From the IMG/VR virus record IMGVR_UViG_2657245439_000017: a stretch of 38,307 bases of DNA; one strand, written 5' to 3'. This DNA comes from a virus. Its lineage: Duplodnaviria > Heunggongvirae > Uroviricota > Caudoviricetes. Below are positions 432 to 30,654 of this stretch, piece by piece. Both the position numbers and the translations under genes were made by a program. The stretch's first letter is position 1. Each line of letters opens with the position of its first letter. The notes beneath the pieces were generated by a model. It saw only the letters and a program-made list of their open reading frames with translations. It ran no database searches and was not told the origin of the DNA.

Positions 432-851
432 ATGGACAGATACTTCTATTCACAAAAAGAAAATGGTTTTTTTACCGATTTAAATAAAGCACCTTCAGAT
501 GCTGTTGAGATAACCACGGATGAATGGCTGTCACTACTGGATGGTCAGGATAATGGCATGAAAATAGTCAGCAATCAGGAGGGATATCCGGTTTTGACAG
601 AGCAACCACCTTTATCAAAAGAAAACCTTATTGCATTGGCAGAGTTGAAAAAAGGAAAACTTATTAATGAAGCCAACGAGCACATGAACAGCAGACAATG
701 GCCTGGTAAAGCGGCTATTGGTCGTCTGAAAGGTGAGGAACTGGCGCAATATAATTTGTGGCTGGATTATCTGGACGCACTGGAAATGGTCGATACTTCC
801 GGTGCGCCAGATATTGAATGGCCTACGCCTCCGGCAGTTCAGGCCAGATGA
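432..851 (+). CDS. Alternative tail fiber assembly protein (U'-like)
   Basis: ATG at 432 directly after the Sv' stop; 139 aa with tail-fiber-assembly C-terminal motif (LWLDYLDALEMVDTSGAPDIEWPTPP) shared with the minus-strand U gene. Confidence 0.75.
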   Translation: MDRYFYSQKENGFFTDLNKAPSDAVEITTDEWLSLLDGQDNGMKIVSNQEGYPVLTEQPPLSKENLIALAELKKGKLINEANEHMNSRQWPGKAAIGRLKGEELAQYNLWLDYLDALEMVDTSGAPDIEWPTPPAVQAR

Positions 852-1416
852 CATCCGGCGCAGTGCTGGTATCTGTTGCCGCCACCGCGTCAATGTAATC
901 CAGCACAGCGTTAAGTCGGGTGTTTTCTGGCTGCGTCAGCTTCCGCCCGGCCTGTAATTTCAGCTGAATCAGACTGATGGAAGCCATTGCAGCATCAATC
1001 AGCGACTGGCGCTTTACTTCTGCCGCGTCTAGTGCGGCGCTATGCTGTGCCTCGGTATCCGTCACCCATTTCTCACCATCCCATTTATCGTATGGCGTTA
1101 ACGGTGAAAGCGTGACATAACCGTCTTTGATGGCACCGATATAATCCACTGTAACAGCTGCGCCATTTTCTGTTGAGTAAACAGTCTCATTGCGATGGTC
1201 TTCTTCATGGCTCCATCCCTTACCCGTGAATACTGCCACTTGCCCCGGAATGTATTCGCCCGGGTCAATACCAGTGGAACAGGCGGGCATACTTACGCCA
1301 GTATTAATATATTCATCAGACCAGCCCGTATATTCAGACGTTACTGCATCATAATAATAACAACGCATATCACCCGGCACTGTAGCCATCCCATTTTCAT
1401 CAAAAACAGGTTTCAT
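823..1416 (-). CDS. Tail fiber assembly protein (U-like)
   Basis: 197 aa; ATG at 1416 overlaps fiber stop; C-terminal motif AVLDYIDAVAATDTSTAPDVIWPELP typical of tail fiber assembly chaperones. Confidence 0.8.
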   Translation of the reverse strand: MKPVFDENGMATVPGDMRCYYYDAVTSEYTGWSDEYINTGVSMPACSTGIDPGEYIPGQVAVFTGKGWSHEEDHRNETVYSTENGAAVTVDYIGAIKDGYVTLSPLTPYDKWDGEKWVTDTEAQHSAALDAAEVKRQSLIDAAMASISLIQLKLQAGRKLTQPENTRLNAVLDYIDAVAATDTSTAPDVIWPELPEA

Positions 1417-2864
1417 TATGCAGCCCTCACAATATAATTAAAGGCGATGTTACGTGGACGGTTTTCATTAGCTGTTGGCACGACACGAGAGGCGTCGAAT
1501 CCAAGGTCATCGGTTTTGCCTATAGCAGTTGTGTTATTCGCCATTGTCGCTGATCGTGTTCCTGCATCGTAAAAAGCCCCTCTGATTGCATCAAAAGACA
1601 TGCCGATCCCGCCATCTGCGAATCCCTCAATATTTCTTATTGCATCCCCCTGTGAAGATAATAATTGTCGCCCGGCATCCACACCACGTCCGTCATCCCA
1701 GCCACGAATAAATTCACCGCGTAAATCAGGCAATTTATTTGTCGGGTAAGCCTTTGCCAGTTCCGGGTATTCTTCAGCCGAAAAAGCAGCCCCGTTGCAT
1801 TTCAGCCAGCCTGTCGGCGGCGTAGGTGAAGGCCAAGGAACTGGTACGCCAACAGGCAACGCAGAACCTTCTCCCAAACCAAGGTAATTGAGGACTTCTT
1901 TTATACTGCCCATAGCGATAATAGCGCGACCAATAGCTGTAAGGGTTGTCAGTGCTGCGCGGTCTGCTCCGGTAAAATAAGGCAACCGATCTGCTGCAGT
2001 GGCAAGTCCTGCCAGAGCAGTGAGCGTGGCATCTGCCGGTTGTTTTCCGTTTGCCAGATCGTATGCAGCCTTGACCGCTTTCGGTGTGGCGGCCAGTATT
2101 TCAGACGTGCTGTTGATGTCACTGCTCAATTGTACGGTGCCTTTTGCCGTCAGCGAGGCAGCAGGCACTCCCGTTATCTGACTCCACGGGTGAGTGTGGC
2201 TGACGGGCGCCTTGCCGGCTGCAAGGTCGTATGCAGCCTTGACCGCCTTCGGCGTGGCAGCCTCAGTTTCTGATTGACTGTCCGTGGCGCTGCTCAGTTG
2301 TACGGTGCCTTTTGCCGTCAGTGAAGCCGCAGGCACTCCCGTTATCTGACTCCACGGGTGAGTGTGGCTGACAGGCGCCTTGCCGGCTGCAAGGTCGTAT
2401 GCAGCCTTGACCGCCTTCGGCGTGGCAGCCTCAGTTTCTGATTGACTGTCCGTGGCGCTGCTCAGTTGTACGGTGCCTTTTGCCGTCAGCGAGGCAGCAG
2501 GCACTCCCGTTATCTGACTCCACGGGTGAGTATGGCTGACGGGGGCCTTGCCGGCAGCCAGGTCATATGCAGCCTTGACGGCCTTTGGTGTGGCGGCCAG
2601 CGTTTCAGAGGTGCTGTTGGTGGCACTGCTCAGTTGGGTGAACCCCTTAGCTGTCAGTGTCGCGTCCGGGTGGTTACGGGAACGTACGTGTTCAGCCAGT
2701 GACTGTGCGGCTTCCTCCGTTTTTTTCTTCAGCCATTTCGTCCTGTTTGCCAGTTGCCGGGGGGCTCGATTTGATATCCCGTCTGCACCACCCAGAACCG
2801 GATCTGATGTCTCCAGTTGATAGATATTTTCTTCCCACTTTTCTGTTTCATTCAGGTTTCCCAT
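1416..2864 (-). CDS. Tail fiber protein (S/H-like); constant N-terminal part 1883-2864, variable C-terminal part 1416-1882 inside invertible segment
   Basis: 482 aa from ATG at 2862-2864; N-terminal NRAPRQLANRTKWL and repeated LSSAT..ATPKAVKAAYDLA motifs typical of P2 H / Mu S fibers. Confidence 0.85.
   Translation of the reverse strand: MGNLNETEKWEENIYQLETSDPVLGGADGISNRAPRQLANRTKWLKKKTEEAAQSLAEHVRSRNHPDATLTAKGFTQLSSATNSTSETLAATPKAVKAAYDLAAGKAPVSHTHPWSQITGVPAASLTAKGTVQLSSATDSQSETEAATPKAVKAAYDLAAGKAPVSHTHPWSQITGVPAASLTAKGTVQLSSATDSQSETEAATPKAVKAAYDLAAGKAPVSHTHPWSQITGVPAASLTAKGTVQLSSDINSTSEILAATPKAVKAAYDLANGKQPADATLTALAGLATAADRLPYFTGADRAALTTLTAIGRAIIAMGSIKEVLNYLGLGEGSALPVGVPVPWPSPTPPTGWLKCNGAAFSAEEYPELAKAYPTNKLPDLRGEFIRGWDDGRGVDAGRQLLSSQGDAIRNIEGFADGGIGMSFDAIRGAFYDAGTRSATMANNTTAIGKTDDLGFDASRVVPTANENRPRNIAFNYIVRAA
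1869..1894. other. hix/gix-like recombination site, right (TTCTCCCAAACC-AA-GGTAATTGAGGA)
   Basis: Inverted copy of the site at 55-80; lies inside the tail fiber gene exactly where the two alternative C-terminal coding sequences diverge (after LGLGE). Confidence 0.6.
2040..2670. repeat. Tandem 168-bp (56-codon) repeats inside tail fiber gene, about 3.5 copies
   Basis: Anchor CACTCCCG recurs at 2166, 2334, 2502; protein repeat HPWSQITGVPAASLTAKGTVQLSSATDSQSETEAATPKAVKAAYDLAAGKAPVSHT. Confidence 0.75.
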
Positions 2865-2866
2865 AA

Positions 2867-3445
2867 TCAACTGCTCCCGTGGTTATAACTGCCATCATGG
2901 ATGGCGGTATTGTTATAGCGAATGGCCACAGACTGATACTCCAGGCTGGCCAGATGGCAGCGGGCCGGTGCAAATGCAGCCAGCGTCTGACGCAGCATCG
3001 CGGCCTGATCGTTAGTAATGGGCTGTTTCAGAATAACGCGATAAACTGCCCAGGCGGCTGCATCTCCATGAACAAACAGTCCGTTATAGCTGCGATTGCC
3101 GTCGTAACTGAGACGACCTGTGCCTTCAATCAGATCCACTTCACCAAAGCCAAAACGGCGGATAACTTCCCGGATTGACCACGGCGTCCCTTTATACCGG
3201 TGCAGTTCGATGGCTGCTTTTATAAGCATGCGGCGAACATCGTCCGATTCCGCCAGCTCCCAGCCATCGCCAGACAGTGAGAACTGCTCGCCCAGCCATG
3301 GCAGCGCGGAACTGTCGACGATATCGACGAGAAAGACCATCAGTACGCTCAGGTCGATGTTATCCAGCCGTCCTGCCAGTCTTCCCAGCGTCCTGAGACT
3401 GATATCACCCTCAAGCGGTGGCGGGAGTTGTAATGGCTCAGTCAT
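2867..3445 (-). CDS. Tail protein, P2 gpI-like (Mu gp48-like)
   Basis: 192 aa; position between baseplate J and fiber; family-level resemblance. Confidence 0.75.
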   Translation of the reverse strand: MTEPLQLPPPLEGDISLRTLGRLAGRLDNIDLSVLMVFLVDIVDSSALPWLGEQFSLSGDGWELAESDDVRRMLIKAAIELHRYKGTPWSIREVIRRFGFGEVDLIEGTGRLSYDGNRSYNGLFVHGDAAAWAVYRVILKQPITNDQAAMLRQTLAAFAPARCHLASLEYQSVAIRYNNTAIHDGSYNHGSS

Positions 3446-4541
3446 CAGACACTCCAGTCATGTTAAGAGTGATTGCCGTACAGTTTGCCCATTCGTTTTC
3501 TGCCACCACCCGCAGTGCCGGTGTCACCAGTTCAACCTGGTACACCCCGGAAACGGACAATGCACTGATAATCTGGCTGGGGACAATATCGCGCCCCAGC
3601 GTGGCGGCACGTGATGCCACCCAGTTCTGTATGGCGCTGTTAGCGGCATCTTTTACAGACCTGGCATCCTGATCACGATAGATCGTAATCTTGGCTTCAA
3701 TGGTGTAATCCACCTTCACTGGTGTTTTAGCCCGCACTGTATCAGTGAGTGGCCTGACTTTCTCATCAGAGCAGAAACTCTCTACCAGCGTGAGAACACC
3801 GCCGTCCGGCAGACCGGTACTGAGCAGCGGATACAGATCTACGGTCCCGGGAACCGGGGAAAGCACAGCAACATCGACAATGTTGGGATGGGCCTGCATG
3901 GCATGAAAGCGGTATGCGCCACGGCTTCCGGCATTGGTGAATGACTCCGGGGCCAGCCTGATACGCTCCCGGAGCCTGTCATCGTCTTCCTGTTCTGAAC
4001 CGCCGGAACTGGCCGTCAGATTGCTCACCAGCAGGTCGACGTTATCAATCTCATCGAGTAACTGACTGACCTGCGCAGGTTGCCAGCCGTTACCAGCGGT
4101 ACCGGGTTCGGTACAGGTGGACGTGACATTGACCAGCAGCAATCCGGCCTTCAGTACCACATCTGTATCGGTGGCAAAAATAACGCTGTCGGAAGCGCTG
4201 ACGCGGGTGCCTGCCGGGATCAGCACATCAATGGCCAGTGCCTCATCTACGGAGAACTGGAGCGTGGTAGTGGCAGGCTGCGCGGCAAGACGGTATACAC
4301 CGACCAGTTCACCGAGGTAATCAATCATCGGCTCACGGGCAAAGGCGACCAGATTCTGCTTTGCTGCCTCCTGTACCGCAACCCTGACCAGCATTTCGCG
4401 ATAGGCCCACAGATCAATCAGCAGACGTTCTGCCTGTGCCGGGTACAGCGTTTTGCCGGTATCCGCTTCATACTTCGCAATCATTTCTGCCGTGATTTTG
4501 TCGGCATCGCGTTCAATAAAATCGGGTTCTGTCAGCGCCAT
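3438..4541 (-). CDS. Baseplate J-like protein (P2 gpJ / Mu gp47-like)
   Basis: 367 aa; gene order W-J-I-fiber. Confidence 0.8.
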   Translation of the reverse strand: MALTEPDFIERDADKITAEMIAKYEADTGKTLYPAQAERLLIDLWAYREMLVRVAVQEAAKQNLVAFAREPMIDYLGELVGVYRLAAQPATTTLQFSVDEALAIDVLIPAGTRVSASDSVIFATDTDVVLKAGLLLVNVTSTCTEPGTAGNGWQPAQVSQLLDEIDNVDLLVSNLTASSGGSEQEDDDRLRERIRLAPESFTNAGSRGAYRFHAMQAHPNIVDVAVLSPVPGTVDLYPLLSTGLPDGGVLTLVESFCSDEKVRPLTDTVRAKTPVKVDYTIEAKITIYRDQDARSVKDAANSAIQNWVASRAATLGRDIVPSQIISALSVSGVYQVELVTPALRVVAENEWANCTAITLNMTGVSDD

Positions 4542-22871: not shown

Positions 22872-23518
22872 TTCTGTAATCCTTCCCGTTCATCCAGTAA
22901 CGCGTTTATCTGGTTCCGCCAGCGACGACATTGTCCTGCGTTGTCGATGATGTTGGCGAGAACGTCACGCTGGGAGACACCCGAATCGCGTAACCGGGTG
23001 TCAGTGGTTTCAGGTTGCCCGGTCGCTGTGCCAGAGCGGGTGCCAGCGGCGGCAACTGAGTCTGAATGACCGGTGTCGACGGATGCGTTGTCATATCCGA
23101 GTGCGGCGTTGTACTGGCGCACGAAACCGCGAGTAAACACGCACTCAATGGGATGGCTCTTACCTTTTTCATCAATCCAGCGCTGTGTGACATCGTTAAT
23201 TTGCCCCTGTAGTTGTTTATTCCGGCTCTCCAGTTGAGCAATCTGCTCAAGATAACCGGCTTCAGCCCGCTGCCCGGCGGCCACCTGCTCCTGATACCGT
23301 CTGGCCCAGGCCCGCAGCGCAGCATTCTCAAGCGTTGCCTGCTCCGTTTTGTACGCGTCAAATGCTGACTGCAACTGACTGAGCGCGGTATCACCGTCAC
23401 GCTTTGCAGAGTCATGACCACTTCTGTATCCCATGGCATACAGGCCGACCAGAAAGGCATTGATAAGAATGGCCAGCAGAATGCCGCGCCACGGCAGCTT
23501 TTTAATCAGATGCCACAC
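22868..23518 (-). CDS. i-spanin (Rz-like): N-terminal TM anchor, periplasmic coiled coil
   Basis: Likely GTG start at 23516-23518 overlapping endolysin stop (track ORF extends to 23620); TM GILLAILINAFLVGLYAMGY then coiled coil; contains embedded lipoprotein gene. Confidence 0.6.
   Translation of the reverse strand: MWHLIKKLPWRGILLAILINAFLVGLYAMGYRSGHDSAKRDGDTALSQLQSAFDAYKTEQATLENAALRAWARRYQEQVAAGQRAEAGYLEQIAQLESRNKQLQGQINDVTQRWIDEKGKSHPIECVFTRGFVRQYNAALGYDNASVDTGHSDSVAAAGTRSGTATGQPETTDTRLRDSGVSQRDVLANIIDNAGQCRRWRNQINALLDEREGLQK
22906..23172 (-). CDS. o-spanin (Rz1-like outer-membrane lipoprotein), embedded in i-spanin gene in a different frame
   Basis: MKKVRAIPLSACLLAVSC lipobox signal followed by Pro-rich sequence; entirely inside 22868-23518. 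Confidence 0.7.
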   Translation of the reverse strand: MKKVRAIPLSACLLAVSCASTTPHSDMTTHPSTPVIQTQLPPLAPALAQRPGNLKPLTPGYAIRVSPSVTFSPTSSTTQDNVVAGGTR

Positions 23519-24242
23519 AACTGCTGCCTCCCCATGTGAGATATCGCGGTGCCAGTTCGCGCAGGATGCGCTGCGGATAATGGCGGTTCTCCCGCCAGCT
23601 GGCCGCATTGCGTCCGGCATTCACCGTCGCGACATGTCCGAACCAGCGGGTGCTGTCCAGACCTTTCTGTGATGCAAGCCGCCTGTCCCGTTGTACCCAG
23701 CCCAGACCACCGTTATAGCCCGACAGTGTCATGGCCATACGCTCGCAGTCACTGGCGGCGCTGACACGCTGCCACAGCCAGCGGTCATAGCTGACCAGCG
23801 CCCGGATAGCCCATGCCGGATTAAACGGCTCACGACTGCTCAGCATCGGTATCAACTGGCTTATCCAGTCGGCAGTGGCAGGCATGAACTGCGCCAGTCC
23901 CTGAGCGCCAGCCGGCGAGATCGCATCAGGTCGCCAGCCGCTTTCCTGATGCAGTTGCGCGGCGAAATCGGCCACCGGCGCAGACAGTCCCCATTCAAGC
24001 CGGGCATTACGGATCACATCATCGCGATACTGCAGCGCAGCCTGCGGAGGTTGTGCTGCGCATGCCTGGCTGAAAAAGCCGCCACACCAGAGCAACATTG
24101 CGACAAAGAATACCCATGCCATATGAACCAGAAAGGTCCCGGCGCGGACTGACAGGCGTTCGGTTCTGATGAAGACCCGAAAGGCTTCGAAAGCCAGTTT
24201 CAGGGACATGCATACAATCCAGGTGATCTGCGGCCAGTTCAT
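23502..24242 (-). CDS. Endolysin, lytic transglycosylase (SLT domain) with N-terminal signal-anchor-like hydrophobic segment
   Basis: Motif QESGWRPDAISPAGAQGLAQFMPATA (catalytic E-S); N-terminal AWVFFVAMLLWCGGFF suggests SAR or secreted endolysin; start could alternatively be the internal Met at 24122. Confidence 0.75.
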   Translation of the reverse strand: MNWPQITWIVCMSLKLAFEAFRVFIRTERLSVRAGTFLVHMAWVFFVAMLLWCGGFFSQACAAQPPQAALQYRDDVIRNARLEWGLSAPVADFAAQLHQESGWRPDAISPAGAQGLAQFMPATADWISQLIPMLSSREPFNPAWAIRALVSYDRWLWQRVSAASDCERMAMTLSGYNGGLGWVQRDRRLASQKGLDSTRWFGHVATVNAGRNAASWRENRHYPQRILRELAPRYLTWGGSSCVASD

Positions 24243-24244
24243 GA

Positions 24245-24595
24245 TTAAAGCCCCATCGCAACAGCCAGGCAGACCGCTGCAACAATCAGTGCACGGCGGA
24301 TTAACGCAGCAGAAAACACCAGGTGAAGGCCGGTCTGTACCGGGAAACGCCCTTCAGCCATCAGCCTGTCGTCATGTTTCAGGTACTGACCGGGACGGGC
24401 TTTGGGGAAGAGCGAACGGTCAAGCCAGTAACCCAGCACTGCTGCCAGCGTGATGAGTGCCAGCTTGTAGATCACAACAGGCAGCTGCTGTGGTGAGACC
24501 AGAGCGATGGTGCCCAGCAACAGCACTGAGGTCAGCAGCCAGCCGCTGAGGCGAGGTTTTTTAACAGGGGGAATGAATTTTTTCAGGTTTTTCAT
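24245..24595 (-). CDS. Putative holin (three predicted TM segments)
   Basis: ATG at 24593-24595 preceded by GAGGA; first gene of lysis cassette; track ORF extends to 24643 via TTG. Confidence 0.55.
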   Translation of the reverse strand: MKNLKKFIPPVKKPRLSGWLLTSVLLLGTIALVSPQQLPVVIYKLALITLAAVLGYWLDRSLFPKARPGQYLKHDDRLMAEGRFPVQTGLHLVFSAALIRRALIVAAVCLAVAMGL

Positions 24596-24725
24596 GTGTG
24601 TATCCTCGTTTGGTGGAGACAGCATCACAAATACAGGGCGCAAAGGATTTTAAAGCGCGTTAAGAGAGCCGGGGATACGGGATGTGCAGGATAAACGATG
24701 AATTATTCACAGAGGAGAATACGAT

Positions 24726-25202
24726 ATGACGCACACACTGAATCCGGTCATCACTGTCACTGTGTCCGGTCCTGTGGGCAGCGGTAAAAGTTACGTACTG
24801 GCGCGGATAGAAGAGATGGTGAAACAGGAACTCGGAAACAGCGTCATTGTCGATGCTGCTGACGTGGAGAATGAGCGCCGTATGAATGGCGAAGATCTGA
24901 CGACCTGGCAGAAGCCACGGGGTGGCACAGTGATCAGGCTAGAGGAATACACGGGACAGGGCCTGTTGTCATACGGCGAGGAGCGTATCTGTCGGACGAA
25001 TGAGCTGCTGGATGTTATATGCCCCACGGGCCGGCAACCCTGGATACTGCCCGATGCACTGCATGCCACCATTGCGGCACTGATGACAGTTTACGATCAG
25101 GAGCTGCTCATGAAGGAGTTACGTAAACTCACCGGTCAGCCAACAGAATGTTGTTCGTCTCCGAAGTACGGCAAACAGGAAAACGCCCCGGATAATCCTT
25201 AA
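24726..25202 (+). CDS. Small P-loop NTPase-like protein (158 aa), function unknown
   Basis: Walker A GPVGSGKS near N-terminus, hydrophobic-D stretch SVIVDAAD as possible Walker B; strong RBS AGAGGAGAA before ATG; opposite strand to flanking operons. Confidence 0.65.
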   Translation: MTHTLNPVITVTVSGPVGSGKSYVLARIEEMVKQELGNSVIVDAADVENERRMNGEDLTTWQKPRGGTVIRLEEYTGQGLLSYGEERICRTNELLDVICPTGRQPWILPDALHATIAALMTVYDQELLMKELRKLTGQPTECCSSPKYGKQENAPDNP

Positions 25203-25221
25203 GATACCTCCTGAACAGAAA

Positions 25222-25237
25222 CAGCCCTGAAGGGCTG
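25222..25237 (-). terminator. Hairpin between convergent genes (CAGCCCT-GA-AGGGCTG), candidate terminator for the repressor-linked operon
   Basis: Starts 3 nt downstream of the minus-strand gene stop; followed on minus strand by TTTCTGTTC; also 20 nt after plus-strand P-loop gene stop. Confidence 0.4.
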
Positions 25238-25239
25238 CA

Positions 25240-25821
25240 CTAAAAAAAGAAGTGTATTATTGCCCAAACAGCTATAACGATGATTCCCAGCCCAAGAGCC
25301 GATTCTAACTTATCTTTGGCAGTCATTTTTACTGTTGTAGCGGGCGCAGGTAAGTCTTGCTGCTGTGGATTTTCTGTTAGTTGTTTACGAGAAGAAACAT
25401 CGCCCCTATTAGTTTGCTTCATGTTGATTACAGATGCGTTATGGGCATTATCAGCAGCAATTGACTGAAGTTTTACAAAAGTTTTTGAATCTGTTTTAGC
25501 CAGAAGTAACCTATTTCCCGTAAACATTGCCTTAAAAGTGATAGTTTTTTTCGTCTTGTCCGCCGCACCAAGCAAACCTCCAATGACCAACCCTGCACCA
25601 CCAAAGATTAATCCACCAAGCAAACCTGCGCCTGCCGCCTTACCTATACGGCTTTCCTCTTCACTATCCGCAAGTTCAATCGATAAAAGCTCTTCTTTCA
25701 GATTTAATACAATATTTTCAGGAAAGCCTTGTTTTGGTTTTTTGGCAAACACGATGGTACCGAACCCCATGCTTGCCCACCCTTTAGGAAAACTTCCTGC
25801 GATAACCTGAATCCCTGCCAT
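25240..25821 (-). CDS. Glycine-zipper membrane protein with C-terminal TM anchor (candidate membrane effector)
   Basis: GAGLLGGLIFGGAGLVIGGLLGA GxxxG-type zipper; C-terminal LGLGIIVIAVWAIIHFFF; start likely ATG at 25819-25821 (AAGGTG 6 nt upstream) rather than GTG at 25830. Confidence 0.65.
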   Translation of the reverse strand: MAGIQVIAGSFPKGWASMGFGTIVFAKKPKQGFPENIVLNLKEELLSIELADSEEESRIGKAAGAGLLGGLIFGGAGLVIGGLLGAADKTKKTITFKAMFTGNRLLLAKTDSKTFVKLQSIAADNAHNASVINMKQTNRGDVSSRKQLTENPQQQDLPAPATTVKMTAKDKLESALGLGIIVIAVWAIIHFFF

Positions 25822-25911
25822 GTTCATCACCTTTTACATTAAAATTTCAGAACGCAGCATGATGCCGCCTTTGTCTTTTTTCTGATCCCATGGTAATTCA
25901 GCTGTTATTTT

Positions 25912-26898
25912 CTATTTAAGAATAAAACGGTATTTACTGTCAGGAGTGCTTTGCTGATCAAGTAGCAGTGAACGACATGGAGCAGTCAAAACCCGAGCAT
26001 AACTACCATCAGGGCTTATGTTAATGTAACAAACCTTGCCCTTAACACTATAATTTTCGGGGACGGATGCCTTTGCTGATACAGTAAATTTAAGGGTATG
26101 CCAGCCCGTTTTTTGCTTGTAGCTTGAAACCGAATGGAAATCATCTGAGTACTTATTTAACCCTGGAAACATGCTGCGCAGTGCGGGGATGGAATCTTCT
26201 ATTATTTTATCGTTGGTTTTAATGTTAAAAACGCTGGTTTCAGTAGAAGCTACTGCTTTGGCATTTCCCCATTTACCAGCGAACACAATCATTCCCACGA
26301 AAAATATTGCTACAAGAACTAACACTCCCCCCAACACTACTACATGAGGCTTCCGGCTTCTGGTTGGTACAGTTGCGACTGATTTTGCACCGCTTTCCGA
26401 TGGAGGTGATAGAGTTTTACTCTCATCACGAATATTCAGCAGATCATCAAAATAACCAAACACAGCCTGCAACTGCTCTTTGTCTAGGCCTTTAAGATGG
26501 GTTGTACCGAAATGCTTCAGACAGTATCTGTCACGGTCAAGACGATACCCAGGGTCAGTAAGCGCCATTATTTTGCTGACCAGAAGATTACAGTCCTTCA
26601 TATTCTGGATCTGTTGTGCATATCTCTGAAGGATCTCAACCGCACCATGATAATCAGCCGCAGTCATTTCATTAACTGTTTTGGTATTAAGTTTCGTGTG
26701 GATCGTCATCCATAGCTCGCGCTTACTTTCCCCCAGATCAACCAATTCATCCATCAATCTGTGTAAATCGCGTTTTTGCAGCAACGAAATTGGTTGCTGG
26801 GCCGAAGGAAGTATGTCAGCAGAATAGTTATGAATGGTAACATCACCGCTGACAACGTTACCCACATCCCCGTTAACTGTTTGCTTCTCTTTACTCAT
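25912..26898 (-). CDS. Single-pass membrane protein (328 aa), cytoplasmic N-domain and extracytoplasmic C-domain, unknown function
   Basis: ATG at 26896-26898 overlaps repressor stop (ATGA coupling); central TM VVVLGGVLVLVAIFFVGMIVFAG; N-terminus shares GDV-GNV-G-VTI motif with repressor C-terminus. Confidence 0.7.
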   Translation of the reverse strand: MSKEKQTVNGDVGNVVSGDVTIHNYSADILPSAQQPISLLQKRDLHRLMDELVDLGESKRELWMTIHTKLNTKTVNEMTAADYHGAVEILQRYAQQIQNMKDCNLLVSKIMALTDPGYRLDRDRYCLKHFGTTHLKGLDKEQLQAVFGYFDDLLNIRDESKTLSPPSESGAKSVATVPTRSRKPHVVVLGGVLVLVAIFFVGMIVFAGKWGNAKAVASTETSVFNIKTNDKIIEDSIPALRSMFPGLNKYSDDFHSVSSYKQKTGWHTLKFTVSAKASVPENYSVKGKVCYINISPDGSYARVLTAPCRSLLLDQQSTPDSKYRFILK

Positions 26899-27356
26899 CT
26901 TCTCTTGGTATTTTTGTTCATTATTCCACCTGTTCCTATGGTTACGTTACCTTTGATAACATTCCCCAGAACATCTCCATGAATAACCTGTTCCGCCCGT
27001 TCTCTGGAGGAGCCAGTAGTCAAGGCCGACAAAACTGAACCTTTGACCTGTAATGGTGCCTGCCGGTAGTGCTGCAGTAACTCCATTTCATCACGTGATA
27101 AAGTTATACCTGATGACTCCCCGGTAAGAATGAACTGTACATTGGCCCCAATTCTTGCAAAGGCTGCAAGTAACTCACCTCCGGGAACAGCAACCCCTCG
27201 TTCATATTTCCCCCACATTTCTCTTGAAACGCCACAAAGGGCTGCTACTTCAGCCTGCTTGAGTGATAACCGCGAACGCTCAGCTTTGAACCGCGACGCG
27301 CAAAGAGAATCAAAATTCACATAAACCTCATTGACAATGAGAACAATAGTTCTCAT
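26895..27356 (-). CDS. Prophage repressor, XRE-family HTH (no S24 peptidase domain)
   Basis: HTH LSLKQAEVAALCGVSREMWGKYERG; divergent from early operon; ATG 27354-27356 has no upstream SD (possibly leaderless); operator palindrome overlaps its start. Confidence 0.75.
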   Translation of the reverse strand: MRTIVLIVNEVYVNFDSLCASRFKAERSRLSLKQAEVAALCGVSREMWGKYERGVAVPGGELLAAFARIGANVQFILTGESSGITLSRDEMELLQHYRQAPLQVKGSVLSALTTGSSRERAEQVIHGDVLGNVIKGNVTIGTGGIMNKNTKRR

Positions 27357-27359
27357 AAT
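27331..27359 (+). promoter_or_regulatory. Candidate sigma70 early promoter (-35 TTGACA 27331-27336, 17-bp spacer, -10 CATAAT 27354-27359)
   Basis: Consensus -35, near-consensus -10, correct spacing, about 45 bp upstream of Ner-like ATG. Confidence 0.5.
27337..27356. promoter_or_regulatory. Perfect 20-bp palindrome ATGAGAAC-AATA-GTTCTCAT, candidate repressor operator
   Basis: Lies in the spacer of the rightward early promoter and overlaps the repressor start codon. Confidence 0.55.
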
Positions 27360-27406
27360 CTATCACATATAAAACAAACATCATTGCATCAACAAAGGAG
27401 ACAACA

Positions 27407-27595
27407 ATGACTTCCGAACAAGTTAAAAATCTCTTCCGTCAGCGTGGTATCACGTTTACCCGCTGGGCCGAAGAACACGGCTACAGCCGCAATGAGGTCT
27501 ATCGTGTTCTCAATGGACAGACCAAAGCTCGTTACGGCAAAGCCCATGAAATTGCCGTAAAACTGGGATTAAAACCCACGTCAAATGCGGCATAA
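27407..27595 (+). CDS. Ner/Cro-like small DNA-binding protein
   Basis: 62 aa, HTH ITFTRWAEEHGYSRNEVYRVLNG; first gene of early operon divergent from repressor; AAGGAG RBS. Confidence 0.65.
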   Translation: MTSEQVKNLFRQRGITFTRWAEEHGYSRNEVYRVLNGQTKARYGKAHEIAVKLGLKPTSNAA

Positions 27596-27647
27596 ATTTT
27601 CCACATATGCAACAGGTTATCACATATTGCAAAAATGGAAATGTGAC

Positions 27648-27956
27648 ATGAGTAAAGTAAATATTTCCAGTTCTGGGACCCGCATCCTACGTGTACTCAA
27701 AGCTCTACGCGGTCATGCTCTGAACGGTGTTTCTAACGGTGAACTGGCATCAGCCCTGGGGGAGTCCCCGGCGAATATCAATCGAGCACTTAATACCCTT
27801 ATTGAAGAGGGACTGGCCATGAAATTAGAGAACGGACGTTTCGCACCGGGAATCCAGTTACTACAGATCGCCATGGCTCACAGTCACGAGATGGCGCGTG
27901 CACAGGATCGTATTAACGAAATCAACCAACGAGTTATTTCAGGTAGTCGTTTGTAA
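27648..27956 (+). CDS. Winged-helix DNA-binding protein (early)
   Basis: wHTH-like LRVLKALRGHALNGVSNGELASALGESPANINRALNTLIEEGL; ATG 27648 preferred, alternative ATG 27585. Confidence 0.55.
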   Translation: MSKVNISSSGTRILRVLKALRGHALNGVSNGELASALGESPANINRALNTLIEEGLAMKLENGRFAPGIQLLQIAMAHSHEMARAQDRINEINQRVISGSRL

Positions 27957-27966
27957 GGAGTAATCA

Positions 27967-28881
27967 ATGGGACGCACCAAATCACCCGTTAACACTGAAC
28001 TGAATGTTGAGGTTCCGCTGTCAGATAACATCAATGTCAATTTGAACGCTATGACACAGCATCGCATGGAAATTATGCAGCAGTTTGGTGATGGACTGCC
28101 TTATGAACGTGATCGCATTGTTCACGAAGCACGTTTTTATATGGCGCAGAGTGCTGAATCTATGCTGGAAGCGGGTAAGCGGCTGATCATCTTAAAAGAA
28201 AATGAGCCACACGGTGATTTTACAAACATTTTAGAAAATGAACTCGGACTTGCACCACAAGTTGCTCGCCGCATGATGCAAGCCAGTATGAAGTTTTTGG
28301 GAGAAGGTGATGAGCCAACAAAACGCTCAACGTTGAGCGTTTTGGGGAAAGCCAAACTGTACGACCTGATGGTTCTGGATAATGAAGAACTTGATGAATT
28401 GGCCGACGGCGGCACAGTTGCCGGCCTGACGCTTGACGACGTTGATCGCATGTCAGTACGTGAATTGCGTCAGGCCCTGCGCGAAGCGCGCGAAACCAAC
28501 GCAGCACAACAGCGCGTACTCGCTGACAAAAATGAAAAAATAGACTCACTCTCCACCAGACTGGAGAAGAAATCCCGTATTCAGTCGCCTGAGCCTGATG
28601 AAGAGGTTAAGAAGCTGCGGGCGGAAGTGACAGCATTAGCGGTTGAGGCGGAATCTGCTATCGCCGTTCGACTGTCCAGCGCTTTTGAGACGCTGTGCGC
28701 ATATTGTGCTGAAAACATGATTGATACCCCCAGAGACTTCATGGCAGGCCTGGTCTGTCAACTGGAAAGCACAGCGCGTAGCCTGCGCTCCACATTTGAC
28801 CTGCCGGATGAGCCAACAGGCAATGCCGCGCCTTCATGGCTGACTGAGCCGACGCCACAGATTAACGGGCTGGAGGCATAA
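27967..28881 (+). CDS. Hypothetical early protein (304 aa) with central coiled coil
   Basis: AGGAG RBS before ATG; immediately upstream of transposase. Confidence 0.55.
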   Translation: MGRTKSPVNTELNVEVPLSDNINVNLNAMTQHRMEIMQQFGDGLPYERDRIVHEARFYMAQSAESMLEAGKRLIILKENEPHGDFTNILENELGLAPQVARRMMQASMKFLGEGDEPTKRSTLSVLGKAKLYDLMVLDNEELDELADGGTVAGLTLDDVDRMSVRELRQALREARETNAAQQRVLADKNEKIDSLSTRLEKKSRIQSPEPDEEVKKLRAEVTALAVEAESAIAVRLSSAFETLCAYCAENMIDTPRDFMAGLVCQLESTARSLRSTFDLPDEPTGNAAPSWLTEPTPQINGLEA

Positions 28882-28884
28882 CCA

Positions 28885-30654
28885 ATGAATGCTGCCCTGA
28901 CTGAACGACTGGTTTATGTCGCCCGCGCGGCACGTGACGCGGGGCATGGTAAACGCGGTGCAATATACGACGCTGCCTGTGCTGAACTTGGCATGTCCCG
29001 CGCCACTCTGCTGCGCAGGCTGAAGGAGGTCTCTGTGACTGATAAACGCAAAAAACGCGCTGATGCCGGACGCAGCGCCCTGACCCGCGACGAAGCCGCG
29101 CTGATATCTGCCACACTGCGTGAGGCCACCCGCAAGAACGGTAAACGCCTCTATTCCATCGCAGATGCAGTGGAAACCCTGCGGGCTAACGGCTTTATCA
29201 CCGCAGGCAGAACAGATGAAACCACCGGTGAGTTTTTCCCGTTGTCTGAAGATGCCATCAGCCGTGCTCTGCGTAACTATGGCCTGCACCCGGAACAACT
29301 GGATGCTCCTGCACCGCATACCGAAGTGGCCAGTCTGCACCCCAATCATGTCTGGCAGATTGACGCCTCACTCTGCACGCTTTACTACCTGAGCAATGGA
29401 CATAAAGGGCTGCAGGTGATGGACAGCGCGAAGTTCTACAAGAACAAGCCCGCTAACCTTGCCCGTATCGCCAGTGACCGCGTGTGGAGTTACGAGATTA
29501 CCGACCATGCCAGCGGCTGGATTTACGTTGAGTATGTGACGGGCGCGGAATCAGGTGAGAACCTGTGTTCTGTGCTTATCAACGCCATGCAGGAGCGTGG
29601 CGGCGCAGACGTGCTGCACGGCGTGCCAAAAATACTCTATCTCGACCCCGGCTCGGCAAACACCGCGGGTATGACGAAAAACATGTGCCGCTCACTGGGC
29701 ATCGACCTGATAGCGCACAAGCCGCATAACGCCCGCGCCACCGGACAGGTGGAAAAGGCGCGGGACATTATCGAACGCAAGCTGGAGCCGGGTCTGAAGT
29801 TCCGGCCGGTTCACAGTCTGGAAGAACTCAATGCGCTGGCCGCGAAATGGCGCAGCCACTTTAACGCCACGGCTGTTCACAGCCGCCACGGTAAAACCCG
29901 CACGGATATCTGGCTGAAGATTACTGCTGAGCAGCTGAAAAAAGCGCCTTCCGTTGAGGTATGTCGTGAACTGGCTGTGGCGGCACCAGAACTCCGCAAA
30001 GTCACGCCAAAACTTCGTGTCTCGTTCCGGGGCACTGAATTTGACGTATCAACGGTACCGGGCGTACTGGTCGGTGAAAAACTGATGATTACCCGTAACC
30101 CGTGGCGCAGCGATGTGGCACAGGTGGTTCTGACCGGTGAGGACGGCCACGAGACGTTCTTCCTGGTCGAAGAAGTCAGAAAGAACGAGTTTGGCTTTGC
30201 TGAAGGCGCGGCGGTATTTGGCGAAAGTTACAAAGCCCTGCCGGAAACCCCGGCGCAGATGGCGGCAAAAGAAACCGAAGCGCTGGTCACCGGTACAGAC
30301 AACGCCGCAGATGCAGCTGCCGCACGCAAGGCGAAGGCGCTGCCGTTCGGCGGGCGGCTTGACCCATATAAACATATTGATGACGCCACACTTCCGGCCT
30401 ATATGCCGAAGCGAGGTCAGGCCTCTGACGTACGCGGGCCGCGCACTGAACAACGTCCCATGACTCATGTGGAGGCCGCGAAAGCCCTGCGCGATAAGTT
30501 CAGCGCCGACGGCCTTACCTGGACGCCGGAACATTACCGCCAGTTAACGGCACAGTATCCGGACGGCGTACCGGAAGCCGCACTGGATGAAGTCATGGCC
30601 ACGCTGACCACGCCGGCCCGCAGCAGCGTTATCAGCATTGTTAACGGCAACTGA
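28885..30654 (+). CDS. DDE transposase (retroviral-integrase-like core; phage transposase A equivalent)
   Basis: 589 aa; candidate catalytic triad in HVWQIDAS, LYLDPGSANT and ATGQVEKA; N-terminal HTH region; GGAGG RBS. Confidence 0.85.
   Translation: MNAALTERLVYVARAARDAGHGKRGAIYDAACAELGMSRATLLRRLKEVSVTDKRKKRADAGRSALTRDEAALISATLREATRKNGKRLYSIADAVETLRANGFITAGRTDETTGEFFPLSEDAISRALRNYGLHPEQLDAPAPHTEVASLHPNHVWQIDASLCTLYYLSNGHKGLQVMDSAKFYKNKPANLARIASDRVWSYEITDHASGWIYVEYVTGAESGENLCSVLINAMQERGGADVLHGVPKILYLDPGSANTAGMTKNMCRSLGIDLIAHKPHNARATGQVEKARDIIERKLEPGLKFRPVHSLEELNALAAKWRSHFNATAVHSRHGKTRTDIWLKITAEQLKKAPSVEVCRELAVAAPELRKVTPKLRVSFRGTEFDVSTVPGVLVGEKLMITRNPWRSDVAQVVLTGEDGHETFFLVEEVRKNEFGFAEGAAVFGESYKALPETPAQMAAKETEALVTGTDNAADAAAARKAKALPFGGRLDPYKHIDDATLPAYMPKRGQASDVRGPRTEQRPMTHVEAAKALRDKFSADGLTWTPEHYRQLTAQYPDGVPEAALDEVMATLTTPARSSVISIVNGN

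Follow-up and report, generated by a model that had tools for sequence, protein, structure and literature searches.

What do membrane proteins do whose genes directly follow the immunity repressor gene of a transposable prophage, and does any of them act with the repressor itself? This question is raised by a 38,307-nucleotide stretch of viral DNA (IMG/VR record IMGVR_UViG_2657245439_000017; hereafter the window), which holds an almost entire BcepMu-like (Bcepmuvirus-type) transposable prophage of Escherichia coli. At the immunity end of this prophage, an XRE-family repressor gene is followed by a gene for a 328-amino-acid (aa) membrane protein and by a gene for a glycine-zipper (PH_gly_zipper) protein, and a small P-loop (Walker-A) gene lies beyond them (Table 1). 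The initial annotation had read the membrane genes and the P-loop gene as one candidate exclusion or abortive-infection (Abi) module. Its anatomy was largely right; instead of one module, we found three independent things, namely a conserved two-gene immunity cassette, in which the repressor and its 328-aa membrane partner show tail-head peptide mimicry, a PH_gly_zipper cargo gene (moron), and the remnant of a truncated P-loop gene.

The repressor and the 328-aa protein are conserved as a pair

The TGA of the repressor gene and the ATG of the 328-aa open reading frame (ORF) overlap as ATGA, as the initial annotation had stated. The pair is kept with this 4-bp overlap in E. coli A24, GABEEC10 and SF-088 as well as in Salmonella, Yersinia and Serratia, and the 328-aa proteins of these carriers are 51-82% identical. 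The repressor and 328-aa stretch in its BcepMu version was matched by 127 of 5426 complete E. coli genomes, all of which covered at least 80% of the stretch with one copy per genome; outside this genome collection, 5 of the 5 homologues looked up sit in BcepMu-like prophages. The ratio of nonsynonymous to synonymous substitution rates (dN/dS) was 0.03-0.04 for the repressor gene and 0.10-0.14 for the 328-aa gene. In commoner relatives of the prophage (strain H105, phage PhiKM), a different, shorter helix-turn-helix (HTH) repressor is found together with a DNA adenine methylase, and neither membrane gene is present.

The pair also occurs in P2-like (Xuanwuvirus-type) prophages, where the cassette lies between repressor and integrase and is followed by a gene for a secreted DUF2511 protein. 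This P2-type pair was found in 520 of the 5426 E. coli genomes, O157:H7 included. The P2-like order is the same as in the window (repressor, partner, exported cargo protein), with the integrase gene following; the DUF2511 gene was located at 3601-3948 of locus L078 and 4101-4448 of locus L149, in P2-like prophages beside yecA, including that of E. coli O157:H7 SS52. Hundreds of prophages of E. coli, Salmonella and Pseudomonas carry this pairing, which is the only conserved unit of the region.

Among 50,697 deposited phage genomes, a single one carried a partner gene with the Flk_N domain described below, and none carried the glycine-zipper gene. In Escherichia phage 520873 (NC_049344.1, 2453-3065, minus strand; locus L028), the partner gene is unannotated, is split across frames and was recovered as three tblastn pieces; it is either a frameshifted pseudogene or affected by sequencing errors. 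No viral loci were recovered with the queries A7, P0044 and P0052. In every annotated record inspected, the partner is labelled "hypothetical protein" or "membrane protein", and no description of the repressor/partner cassette or of these Pfam families was found in the literature searched.

Since the membrane genes lie directly downstream of the repressor gene, as rex and sie genes do, their expression in the lysogen is expected; judging from the gene order, they would be transcribed from the repressor promoter, as had been proposed.

The repressor tail and the partner head carry matched, co-varying peptides

Comparison of the two proteins showed that the C-terminal tail of the repressor resembles the N-terminal head of the protein encoded next. 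The tail peptide (Table 1) continues into GTGGIMNKNTKRR and ends in a basic patch; aligned with each other, the window tail QVIHGDVLGNVIKGNVTI, which precedes this basic end, and the window head QTVNGDVGNVVSGDVTI gave a BLOSUM62 local score of 55, compared with 20.2 ± 4.3 for shuffled heads. The common peptide comprises about 16 residues, is Gly-rich and reads roughly phi-x-G-x-phi-x-G-x-phi-x-x-G-D/N-phi-x-phi. Head residues G10, G13-G18, V20 and I22 are invariant in 18 homologues.

In distant relatives the likeness of tail and head is kept, and each lineage has its own version of the peptide. The repressor tail and partner head read QQFNGPVGSVATGDVVN and QQFHERVDQVAAGDIKN in Pseudomonas, QIFNGDISGQFAGNQIIN and QEFNGTAQGQFSSRDIIN in an IMG/VR group, QIVHGDVGQSISGD and QKVYGNVGQMIGRD in Hafnia, and GGNNRIAGRDYNE and GSNNRVAGRDFHE in the "NNR" type. 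Cognate tails and heads scored 38-55 in every lineage tested, against 17-20 ± 4 for shuffled heads, and the cognate assignment was the best of 120 permutations. As a background, 950 adjacent co-directional ORF pairs from all loci examined had a median score of 17 and a 95th percentile of 28, and the pairs scoring 38 or more were all a repressor followed by a membrane protein, with the exception of one low-complexity artefact. Chance as the source of the match was ruled out by the shuffles and by this background. A hidden Markov model of the motif, run on the 2796 ORFs of these loci, matched 31 repressor C-terminal tails and 29 partner N-terminal heads with no internal matches and no orphans; because the model was built from these same instances, only the absence of matches elsewhere is informative.

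In IMG/VR, at least 470 relatives of the repressor family were found. Across the best 80 of these loci, the tail and a matched Flk_N partner occur together, with gaps of -4 to +34 nt between the genes, and three family members without the tail are also without the partner. When 27 clusters were compared, the cognate head ranked first for 10 tails and among the top three for 19, and 0 of 20000 permutations reached the cognate sum. The match is found again, and co-varies, in about 23 prophage lineages, BcepMu-like as well as P2-like, and in almost every case tail and head are either both present or both absent.

At the identical residues of tail and head, 73 of 179 codons were the same (41%), and nucleotide identity was 52-69%. 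Because so few codons agree, the match is kept by selection at the protein level, and a recent DNA duplication or gene conversion was ruled out as its source. Furthermore, the NNR head is also found on an unrelated scaffold, a 118-120-aa protein with a zinc ribbon and transmembrane (TM) segments, where it is again matched to its own repressor. These zinc-ribbon partners (L030, 3117-3473; L059, 2989-3345; L060, 2990-3352) combine the NNR-type head with a zinc-ribbon-like CPYC...C motif and two hydrophobic stretches; they have no Flk_N domain, and their genes are followed by a gene for a C-domain lipoprotein.

The partner combines a Flk_N domain, a membrane anchor and a periplasmic domain

The 328-aa protein had been described as a single-pass membrane protein, and one hydrophobic helix was indeed predicted. 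In the AlphaFold2 (AF2) monomer model, residues 1-30, which include the head, are disordered (predicted local distance difference test, pLDDT, below 50), and two domains flanking the TM helix are modelled with a pLDDT above 90 (Table 1). Three lines of evidence support a cytoplasmic N-terminus and a periplasmic C-terminal domain: the model, the existence of lipoproteins related to the C-terminal domain, and two cysteines, C290 and C308, that are invariant in an alignment of 18 full-length homologues.

The protein matches phrog_10002, and PF27202 (Flk_N) is on record as a precomputed match for an identical protein (P0001) and for homologues. Against the N-terminal part of Flk it gave an E-value of 2.9e-12 and 46.6 bits over residues 19-147 only, and the full-length Flk model (NCBIfam PRK10715) has a curated cut-off of 353. 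By sequence, then, the 328-aa protein shares the Flk_N domain but is no Flk orthologue. Flk (Fluke, RflH) of Salmonella and E. coli has the same order of a cytoplasmic helical Flk_N domain and a membrane anchor (PMC13344023). Unlike Flk, the partner is prophage-borne and carries the head peptide. The order of a Flk_N domain and a C-terminal TM anchor, which defines the tail-anchored family, is found in the 328-aa protein too, and in the window lineage an extra periplasmic domain follows the anchor.

An exhaustive profile search showed that the two halves also occur apart. Flk_N-only relatives of about 185-216 aa consist of the N-domain and a TM helix and, since their sequences end at this helix, are taken to be tail-anchored. 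The C-terminal domain alone is found in lipoproteins of about 130-320 aa; it occurs as a free lipoprotein in 39 IMG/VR loci, 35 of which lack a Flk_N gene. At locus L022, a lipoprotein gene directly follows a tail-anchored Flk_N gene, and the N-terminal domain of this lipoprotein is 34% identical to the periplasmic domain of the window (E 1e-17). Because the halves exist separately, the window lineage has joined the domain of a cargo lipoprotein to the anchor of the repressor partner. Two further loci (L057 and L058) encode a fused protein of Flk_N and periplasmic domain (324 aa, 2367-3341) and then a separate lipoprotein with the same domain (3501-4028), which amounts to two copies of the periplasmic domain per operon.

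A Foldseek search of the 328-aa model against the PDB returned nothing below an E-value of 0.1, leaving the periplasmic domain without a known fold relative there, and a fold search of BFVD returned a single ORF6C-domain protein (E 8.6e-4). By sequence, no solved structures were found for the 328-aa family or the glycine-zipper family, and no single protein fusing HTH and Flk_N was found by profile search.

The repressor gene and its control region

The repressor matches HTH_31 and HTH_3, and its gene is divergent from the ner-like gene; in sister prophages the same slot holds other HTH repressors. Its longest ORF begins at ATG 27356, which falls within a promoter-like site on the plus strand (TTGACA-17-CATAAT, 27331-27359; promoter scan score 11/12). 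The real start is probably GTG 27320, giving 141 aa; this start is preferred because a GAGG Shine-Dalgarno sequence lies 5 nt upstream and because 141 aa is also the length annotated for the homologue in Salmonella. The spacer of the same early promoter-like site is occupied by a perfect palindrome, GAGAAC-AATA-GTTCTC, which is present as a single exact copy in the window and is a candidate operator.

A candidate repressor/membrane-partner switch

The strict synteny and the shared co-varying peptide suggest that the 328-aa protein is a partner of the repressor and not a free-standing pore-forming effector. The gene order, the coupling, the conserved pairing of the genes, the matched, co-varying peptides and the domain composition of the partner are shown, and physical pairing, membrane tethering and a direction of regulation are inferred. 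We propose that the repressor tail and the partner head pair directly, forming a repressor/membrane-partner switch comparable to a sigma/anti-sigma pair, and we give this proposal an even chance of being correct. The tail would be made last in the repressor and the head first in the partner, on one coupled mRNA, so that pairing could be co-translational. The peptide is predicted to be beta-prone as well as Gly-rich, mutual pairing would be the simplest reading of the co-variation, and the disorder of the head in the monomer model is what one would expect of a segment that becomes ordered upon binding. A fraction of the repressor might thereby be retained at the inner membrane, or passed to it, via the tail-anchored partner, which would set the activity or stability of the repressor, or the level of free repressor, and could hide or expose its basic C-terminal end. 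Through its TM helix and periplasmic part, the partner could make lysogeny responsive to the condition of the envelope, much as an anti-sigma factor does with its sigma factor, and the fused periplasmic domain could add an envelope input in the window lineage.

In systems of the RpoE-RseA type, a transcription-factor gene is followed by a gene for a single-pass membrane protein with an N-terminal cytoplasmic domain and a C-terminal periplasmic domain. The cassette shares this gene order (with the ATGA overlap here and the short gaps in the other lineages), the expected co-expression and a topology suited to envelope signalling. It differs from RpoE-RseA in that an XRE repressor takes the place of the sigma factor, the partner has no anti-sigma domain, the predicted contact is made by like terminal peptides rather than by a domain wrapping the factor, and most relatives of the partner are tail-anchored without a periplasmic part. 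A precedent in transposable phages is the Mu repressor, which is likewise not LexA-like and in which a C-terminal determinant controls degradation by ClpXP, so that the tail governs the fate of the protein (PMC10584840). Unlike the repressor here, whose tail is mirrored in a second protein, the Mu repressor has no membrane partner, and it is a member of a different family.

Several observations weigh against this proposal. The co-variation is incomplete: several foreign tails also give good scores with the E. coli head, the cognate head does not rank first in most of the 27 clusters, and 4 of the 27 are out-of-frame artefacts. In Chitiniphilus (locus L024), the Flk_N gene follows a gene for a 90-aa protein without an HTH and without the motif, and one repressor tail (locus L145) seems to have no matched head. 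The shared peptide could serve a third party instead of mutual pairing, and the constant co-expression of a protein that sequesters its own repressor has no obvious rationale. We know of no repressor-related role for the Flk_N domain. Flk itself acts on flagellar type III secretion (PMC13344023).

The wider proposal is that the cassette represents a widespread and as yet unrecognised switch of temperate phages, in which an XRE repressor would be physically coupled through like peptides to a tail-anchored inner-membrane protein, for reading the envelope or for placement at the membrane. We put this forward tentatively, with more doubt than confidence.

Alternative explanations for the membrane genes

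The alternative that survives best, which we nevertheless consider unlikely, is an exclusion or Abi module expressed from the repressor operon, like rexAB or sie, and tied to the repressor only by co-transcription. The layout is indeed that of lambda cI-rexA-rexB and of the sie genes, with non-essential genes, including those of membrane proteins, directly downstream of the repressor gene and co-oriented with it. Lactococcal Sie2009 and TP-J34 Ltp are sie genes of lysogeny modules, and the known exclusion lipoproteins Cor, Llp and Ltp have the free-lipoprotein form that the 328-aa periplasmic domain takes in other prophages. P22 sieA is also a sie gene of the lysogeny module (PMC10883804). The membrane genes are part of the lysogeny operon, follow the immunity repressor gene and lie in AT-rich DNA, and the position after the pair is a hotspot for cargo genes. 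As the initial annotation had observed, none of the genes has a core phage function; on the strength of this, their predicted membrane location, purifying selection (dN/dS ~0.1) and position, expression in the prophage and an exclusion role are plausible, and this part of the earlier reading holds.

No known exclusion or Abi model was matched. PADLOC-DB 2.0 gave just two kinds of hit, one to the repressor's generic HTH (RmrA, E 4.7e-5) and the other P-loop noise (E 0.007 or worse), and in the defence and profile check as a whole PADLOC, Pfam, PHROGs and NCBIfam gave nothing beyond generic HTH and P-loop hits. The window proteins have no sequence or profile similarity to lambda Rex or Sie; no RexA or RexB homology was found in Pfam, PHROG or PADLOC at E <= 0.1, and no similarity to annotated Sie families in the PHROG search. 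RexA is a cytoplasmic sensor and RexB a polytopic membrane channel, whereas the window proteins have one TM helix or a glycine zipper with a tail anchor, and Rex is an obligate pair, whereas each of the membrane genes here is found without the other. The P-loop gene, for its part, is a truncated gene that converges on the operon and is carried independently of the immunity type. In addition, co-transcription leaves the matched co-varying peptides and their joint presence or absence unexplained; to our knowledge, Rex and Sie proteins do not share a peptide with their repressor. The reading as a three-gene defence module was rejected, as it is unsupported by the four resources and by the separability of the genes: the P-loop gene is a truncated neighbour, the glycine-zipper gene is swappable, and only the repressor and the 328-aa gene are kept. 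An exclusion role is more likely for the PH_gly_zipper gene alone, the product of which is possibly an exclusion protein.

Alternatively, the shared peptide might be a tag read by a host factor (FtsH, ClpXP, Lon or a chaperone), with the membrane protein acting as a protective decoy or competitor or as a delivering adaptor, much as lambda CIII protects CII from FtsH. Both copies of the peptide lie at free, probably disordered termini, and the tails end in a basic patch (KRR, KSKE, NKK). The C-terminal ClpX determinant of the Mu repressor and the degradation of lambda CII and CIII by FtsH would fit such a tag (PMC10584840). A host reader, however, would be expected to fix one motif per host, and enterobacterial prophages have several motif types, each matching its own partner; we therefore regard a host tag as improbable.

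A toxin-antitoxin (TA) or addiction system, in which the repressor tail neutralises a membrane-acting toxin that is freed upon loss of the repressor and then aborts infection or aids induction, appears quite improbable. Type II TA systems classically have an XRE protein with a C-terminal tail and, downstream, an overlapping gene, and the HTH weakly matches the MqsA, HipB and PezA antitoxin models, but these matches span the generic HTH only. The downstream protein is no known toxin, matching no toxin family in Pfam, NCBIfam or PADLOC; it consists mostly of a soluble helical Flk_N domain and has just one TM helix. The XRE gene occupies the position of a prophage repressor gene, the early promoter holds a candidate operator, and by this position the product of the XRE gene is the immunity repressor. 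In a last alternative, lysogenic conversion, the partner would act as a Flk mimic on the flagellar type III export gate and change motility or flagellum-dependent phage adsorption. This is suggested by the similarity to Flk, which is cytoplasmic with a tail anchor and holds back the switch in secretion specificity (PMC13344023). We regard it as very improbable, because the match lies far under the family cut-off, the domain alone is in common, and the tie to the repressor and the same head on the zinc-ribbon scaffold would go unexplained.

Neighbouring genes and prophage context

Table 1. Positions of the features of the immunity region within the window
Feature	Position	Strand	Remarks
XRE-family immunity repressor	26895-27356	-	HTH_31/HTH_3 matches; longest ORF 153 aa
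Repressor C-terminal tail peptide	26937-26987	-	VIHGDVLGNVIKGNVTI; residues 124-140 of the 153-aa ORF; matches head of next protein
328-aa membrane partner of the repressor	25912-26898	-	Head peptide, Flk_N cytoplasmic domain, one TM helix, periplasmic domain
Partner head peptide	26833-26880	-	TVNGDVGNVVSGDVTI; residues 7-22 of the 328-aa protein; matches repressor tail
Flk_N-like helical cytoplasmic domain	26425-26808	-	Residues 31-158; AF2 pLDDT above 90
Transmembrane segment	26275-26346	-	Residues ~185-208; hydrophobic run HVVVLGGVLVLVAIFFVGMIVFAG; modelled helix 188-207
Periplasmic alpha/beta domain	25915-26238	-	Residues 221-328; pLDDT above 90; invariant cysteines C290, C308
193-aa PH_gly_zipper protein	25240-25821	-	Zipper ~residues 58-87; C-terminal TM anchor; phrog_12025
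Terminator-like hairpin between convergent genes	25221-25238	-	7 pairs, 5 G-C; then U-rich tail UUUCUGUUC
Walker-A ORF, 158 aa	24726-25202	+	3'-truncated allele of 242-aa prophage gene; outside operon
Candidate operator	27330-27363		Palindrome GAGAAC-AATA-GTTCTC (27339-27354) within 15-nt-arm inverted repeat
ner-like early HTH gene	27407-27595	+	phrog_925, E 1.3e-32; divergent from repressor; marks immunity boundary

The glycine-zipper gene follows the 328-aa gene after a spacer of 81-90 nt. Its start is most likely ATG 25821, giving 193 aa, because the PGAP start lies there and phrog_12025 aligns from residue 4 of the 196-aa ORF. PH_gly_zipper (PF27000) is a weak precomputed match on the homologues P0026, P0032 and P0033 (66-97% identity), and the AF2 model of the protein (pLDDT 42.6) is too poor for a fold check. 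The gene has a dN/dS of 0.11, and its slot is filled variously: A24, GABEEC10, Yersinia and Salmonella have unrelated genes there and Serratia has none; the unrelated proteins encoded after the pair have 182, 203, 249 or 89 aa. Across sister prophages the slot codes for lipoproteins, secreted proteins, an ankyrin protein or a DUF2441 protein. Conversely, BcepMu-like prophages of Citrobacter carry the glycine-zipper gene after a different, 121-aa repressor and without the 328-aa gene. The glycine-zipper gene is thus an independent cargo gene (moron) under purifying selection.

The hairpin that had been noted after this gene was confirmed directly behind its stop codon; its centroid energy is -12.1 kcal/mol, with a z-score of only -1.6. 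In the spacer between the two membrane genes (25835-25915, minus strand), a small hairpin, GCGGCA-UCA-UGCUGC, is followed by a U-rich run; as it folds no better than shuffled sequence (z -0.34), it is no clear internal terminator or attenuator.

The P-loop gene had been described as divergent, which proved wrong: it is convergent with the membrane operon, tail to tail across 37 bp, and divergent only from the holin gene. Its product covers positions 1-157 of 242 in phrog_3787, short of a full-length match. Compared with the 242-aa protein of H105 and PhiKM, it shows 92% identity over that protein's first 157 residues; strain A24 has a 128-aa form. Related prophages carry the 242-aa gene whatever their immunity type, which together with the truncation excluded it as a member of the system. 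Because its product stops after this 92% identical part, and because its dN/dS is 0.34, the gene is regarded as a decaying neighbour and no partner. The slot between holin gene and lysogeny operon (24644-25240) is itself a cargo hotspot (compared with L003, L004, L005 and L068); in sister E. coli prophages it is filled by the 242-aa P-loop gene with a DNA adenine methylase gene, by a 128-aa remnant labelled KAP family NTPase, or by a DUF2441 protein gene.

The repressor and membrane genes sit between two arms of the prophage. The leftward late/lysis arm ends with an SLT transglycosylase gene (23502-24242) and the holin gene (24245-24643, minus strand; PF13272, E 1.6e-41). The rightward early arm carries the ner-like gene, which is found at the same position in all sister prophages, an IclR-type HTH gene, DUF3102, a DDE transposase gene (28885-30654) and genes for a MuB-like ATPase, Gam, GemA and Mor. 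The AT-richness of the region, first seen by eye, was borne out by a GC content of 0.42-0.46 across 25001-28000, compared with about 0.52-0.62 on the flanks; the AT-rich stretch extends past the ner-like and IclR-type HTH genes to about 28500. Positions 24200-27700 are 100% identical to prophages of strains 504838, IAI39, CE10 and others. Part of this 3.5-kb stretch was matched by 636 of the 5426 E. coli genomes, and nearly all of it by 98.

Two further features were seen towards the ends of the window. The layout at 64-1885 resembles an invertible tail-fibre segment: a tail-fibre gene (1416-2870, minus strand) and an assembly gene (823-1416, minus strand) lie opposite two ORFs of the other strand (72-428 and 432-851, plus strand), which encode an alternative C-terminus of the fibre (Gp53-like_C) and a second Caudo_TAP protein. 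An 18-nt inverted repeat flanks the segment (64-81 and 1868-1885, 94% complementary; CTTCTCCCAAACCAAGGT) and resembles the crossover sites of the Gin/Cin invertase family; no invertase gene was found within the window. At the other end, a signalling ORF with PAS-PAS-GGDEF-EAL architecture (36292-38307, plus strand) continues beyond the window and is presumably a host gene adjoining the prophage end. This end was placed between the Mor gene (35284-35673) and about 36290, and GC content falls to 0.40-0.45 over 35500-36500.

Implications for temperate phages

Should the membrane genes prove to be exclusion factors, they would represent new families for prophage-encoded defence. If the repressor and its partner are coupled as proposed, the prophage could read the state of the envelope, or could place its repressor at the membrane, where incoming DNA arrives. 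This would amount to an SOS-independent control of lysogeny or immunity in P2-like and Mu-like phages. Many P2-like and Mu-like repressors are not LexA-like, and a conserved membrane partner that mirrors the repressor tail would offer a concrete, testable handle on their induction. The matched peptides could, in addition, serve as reusable, orthogonal interaction tags.

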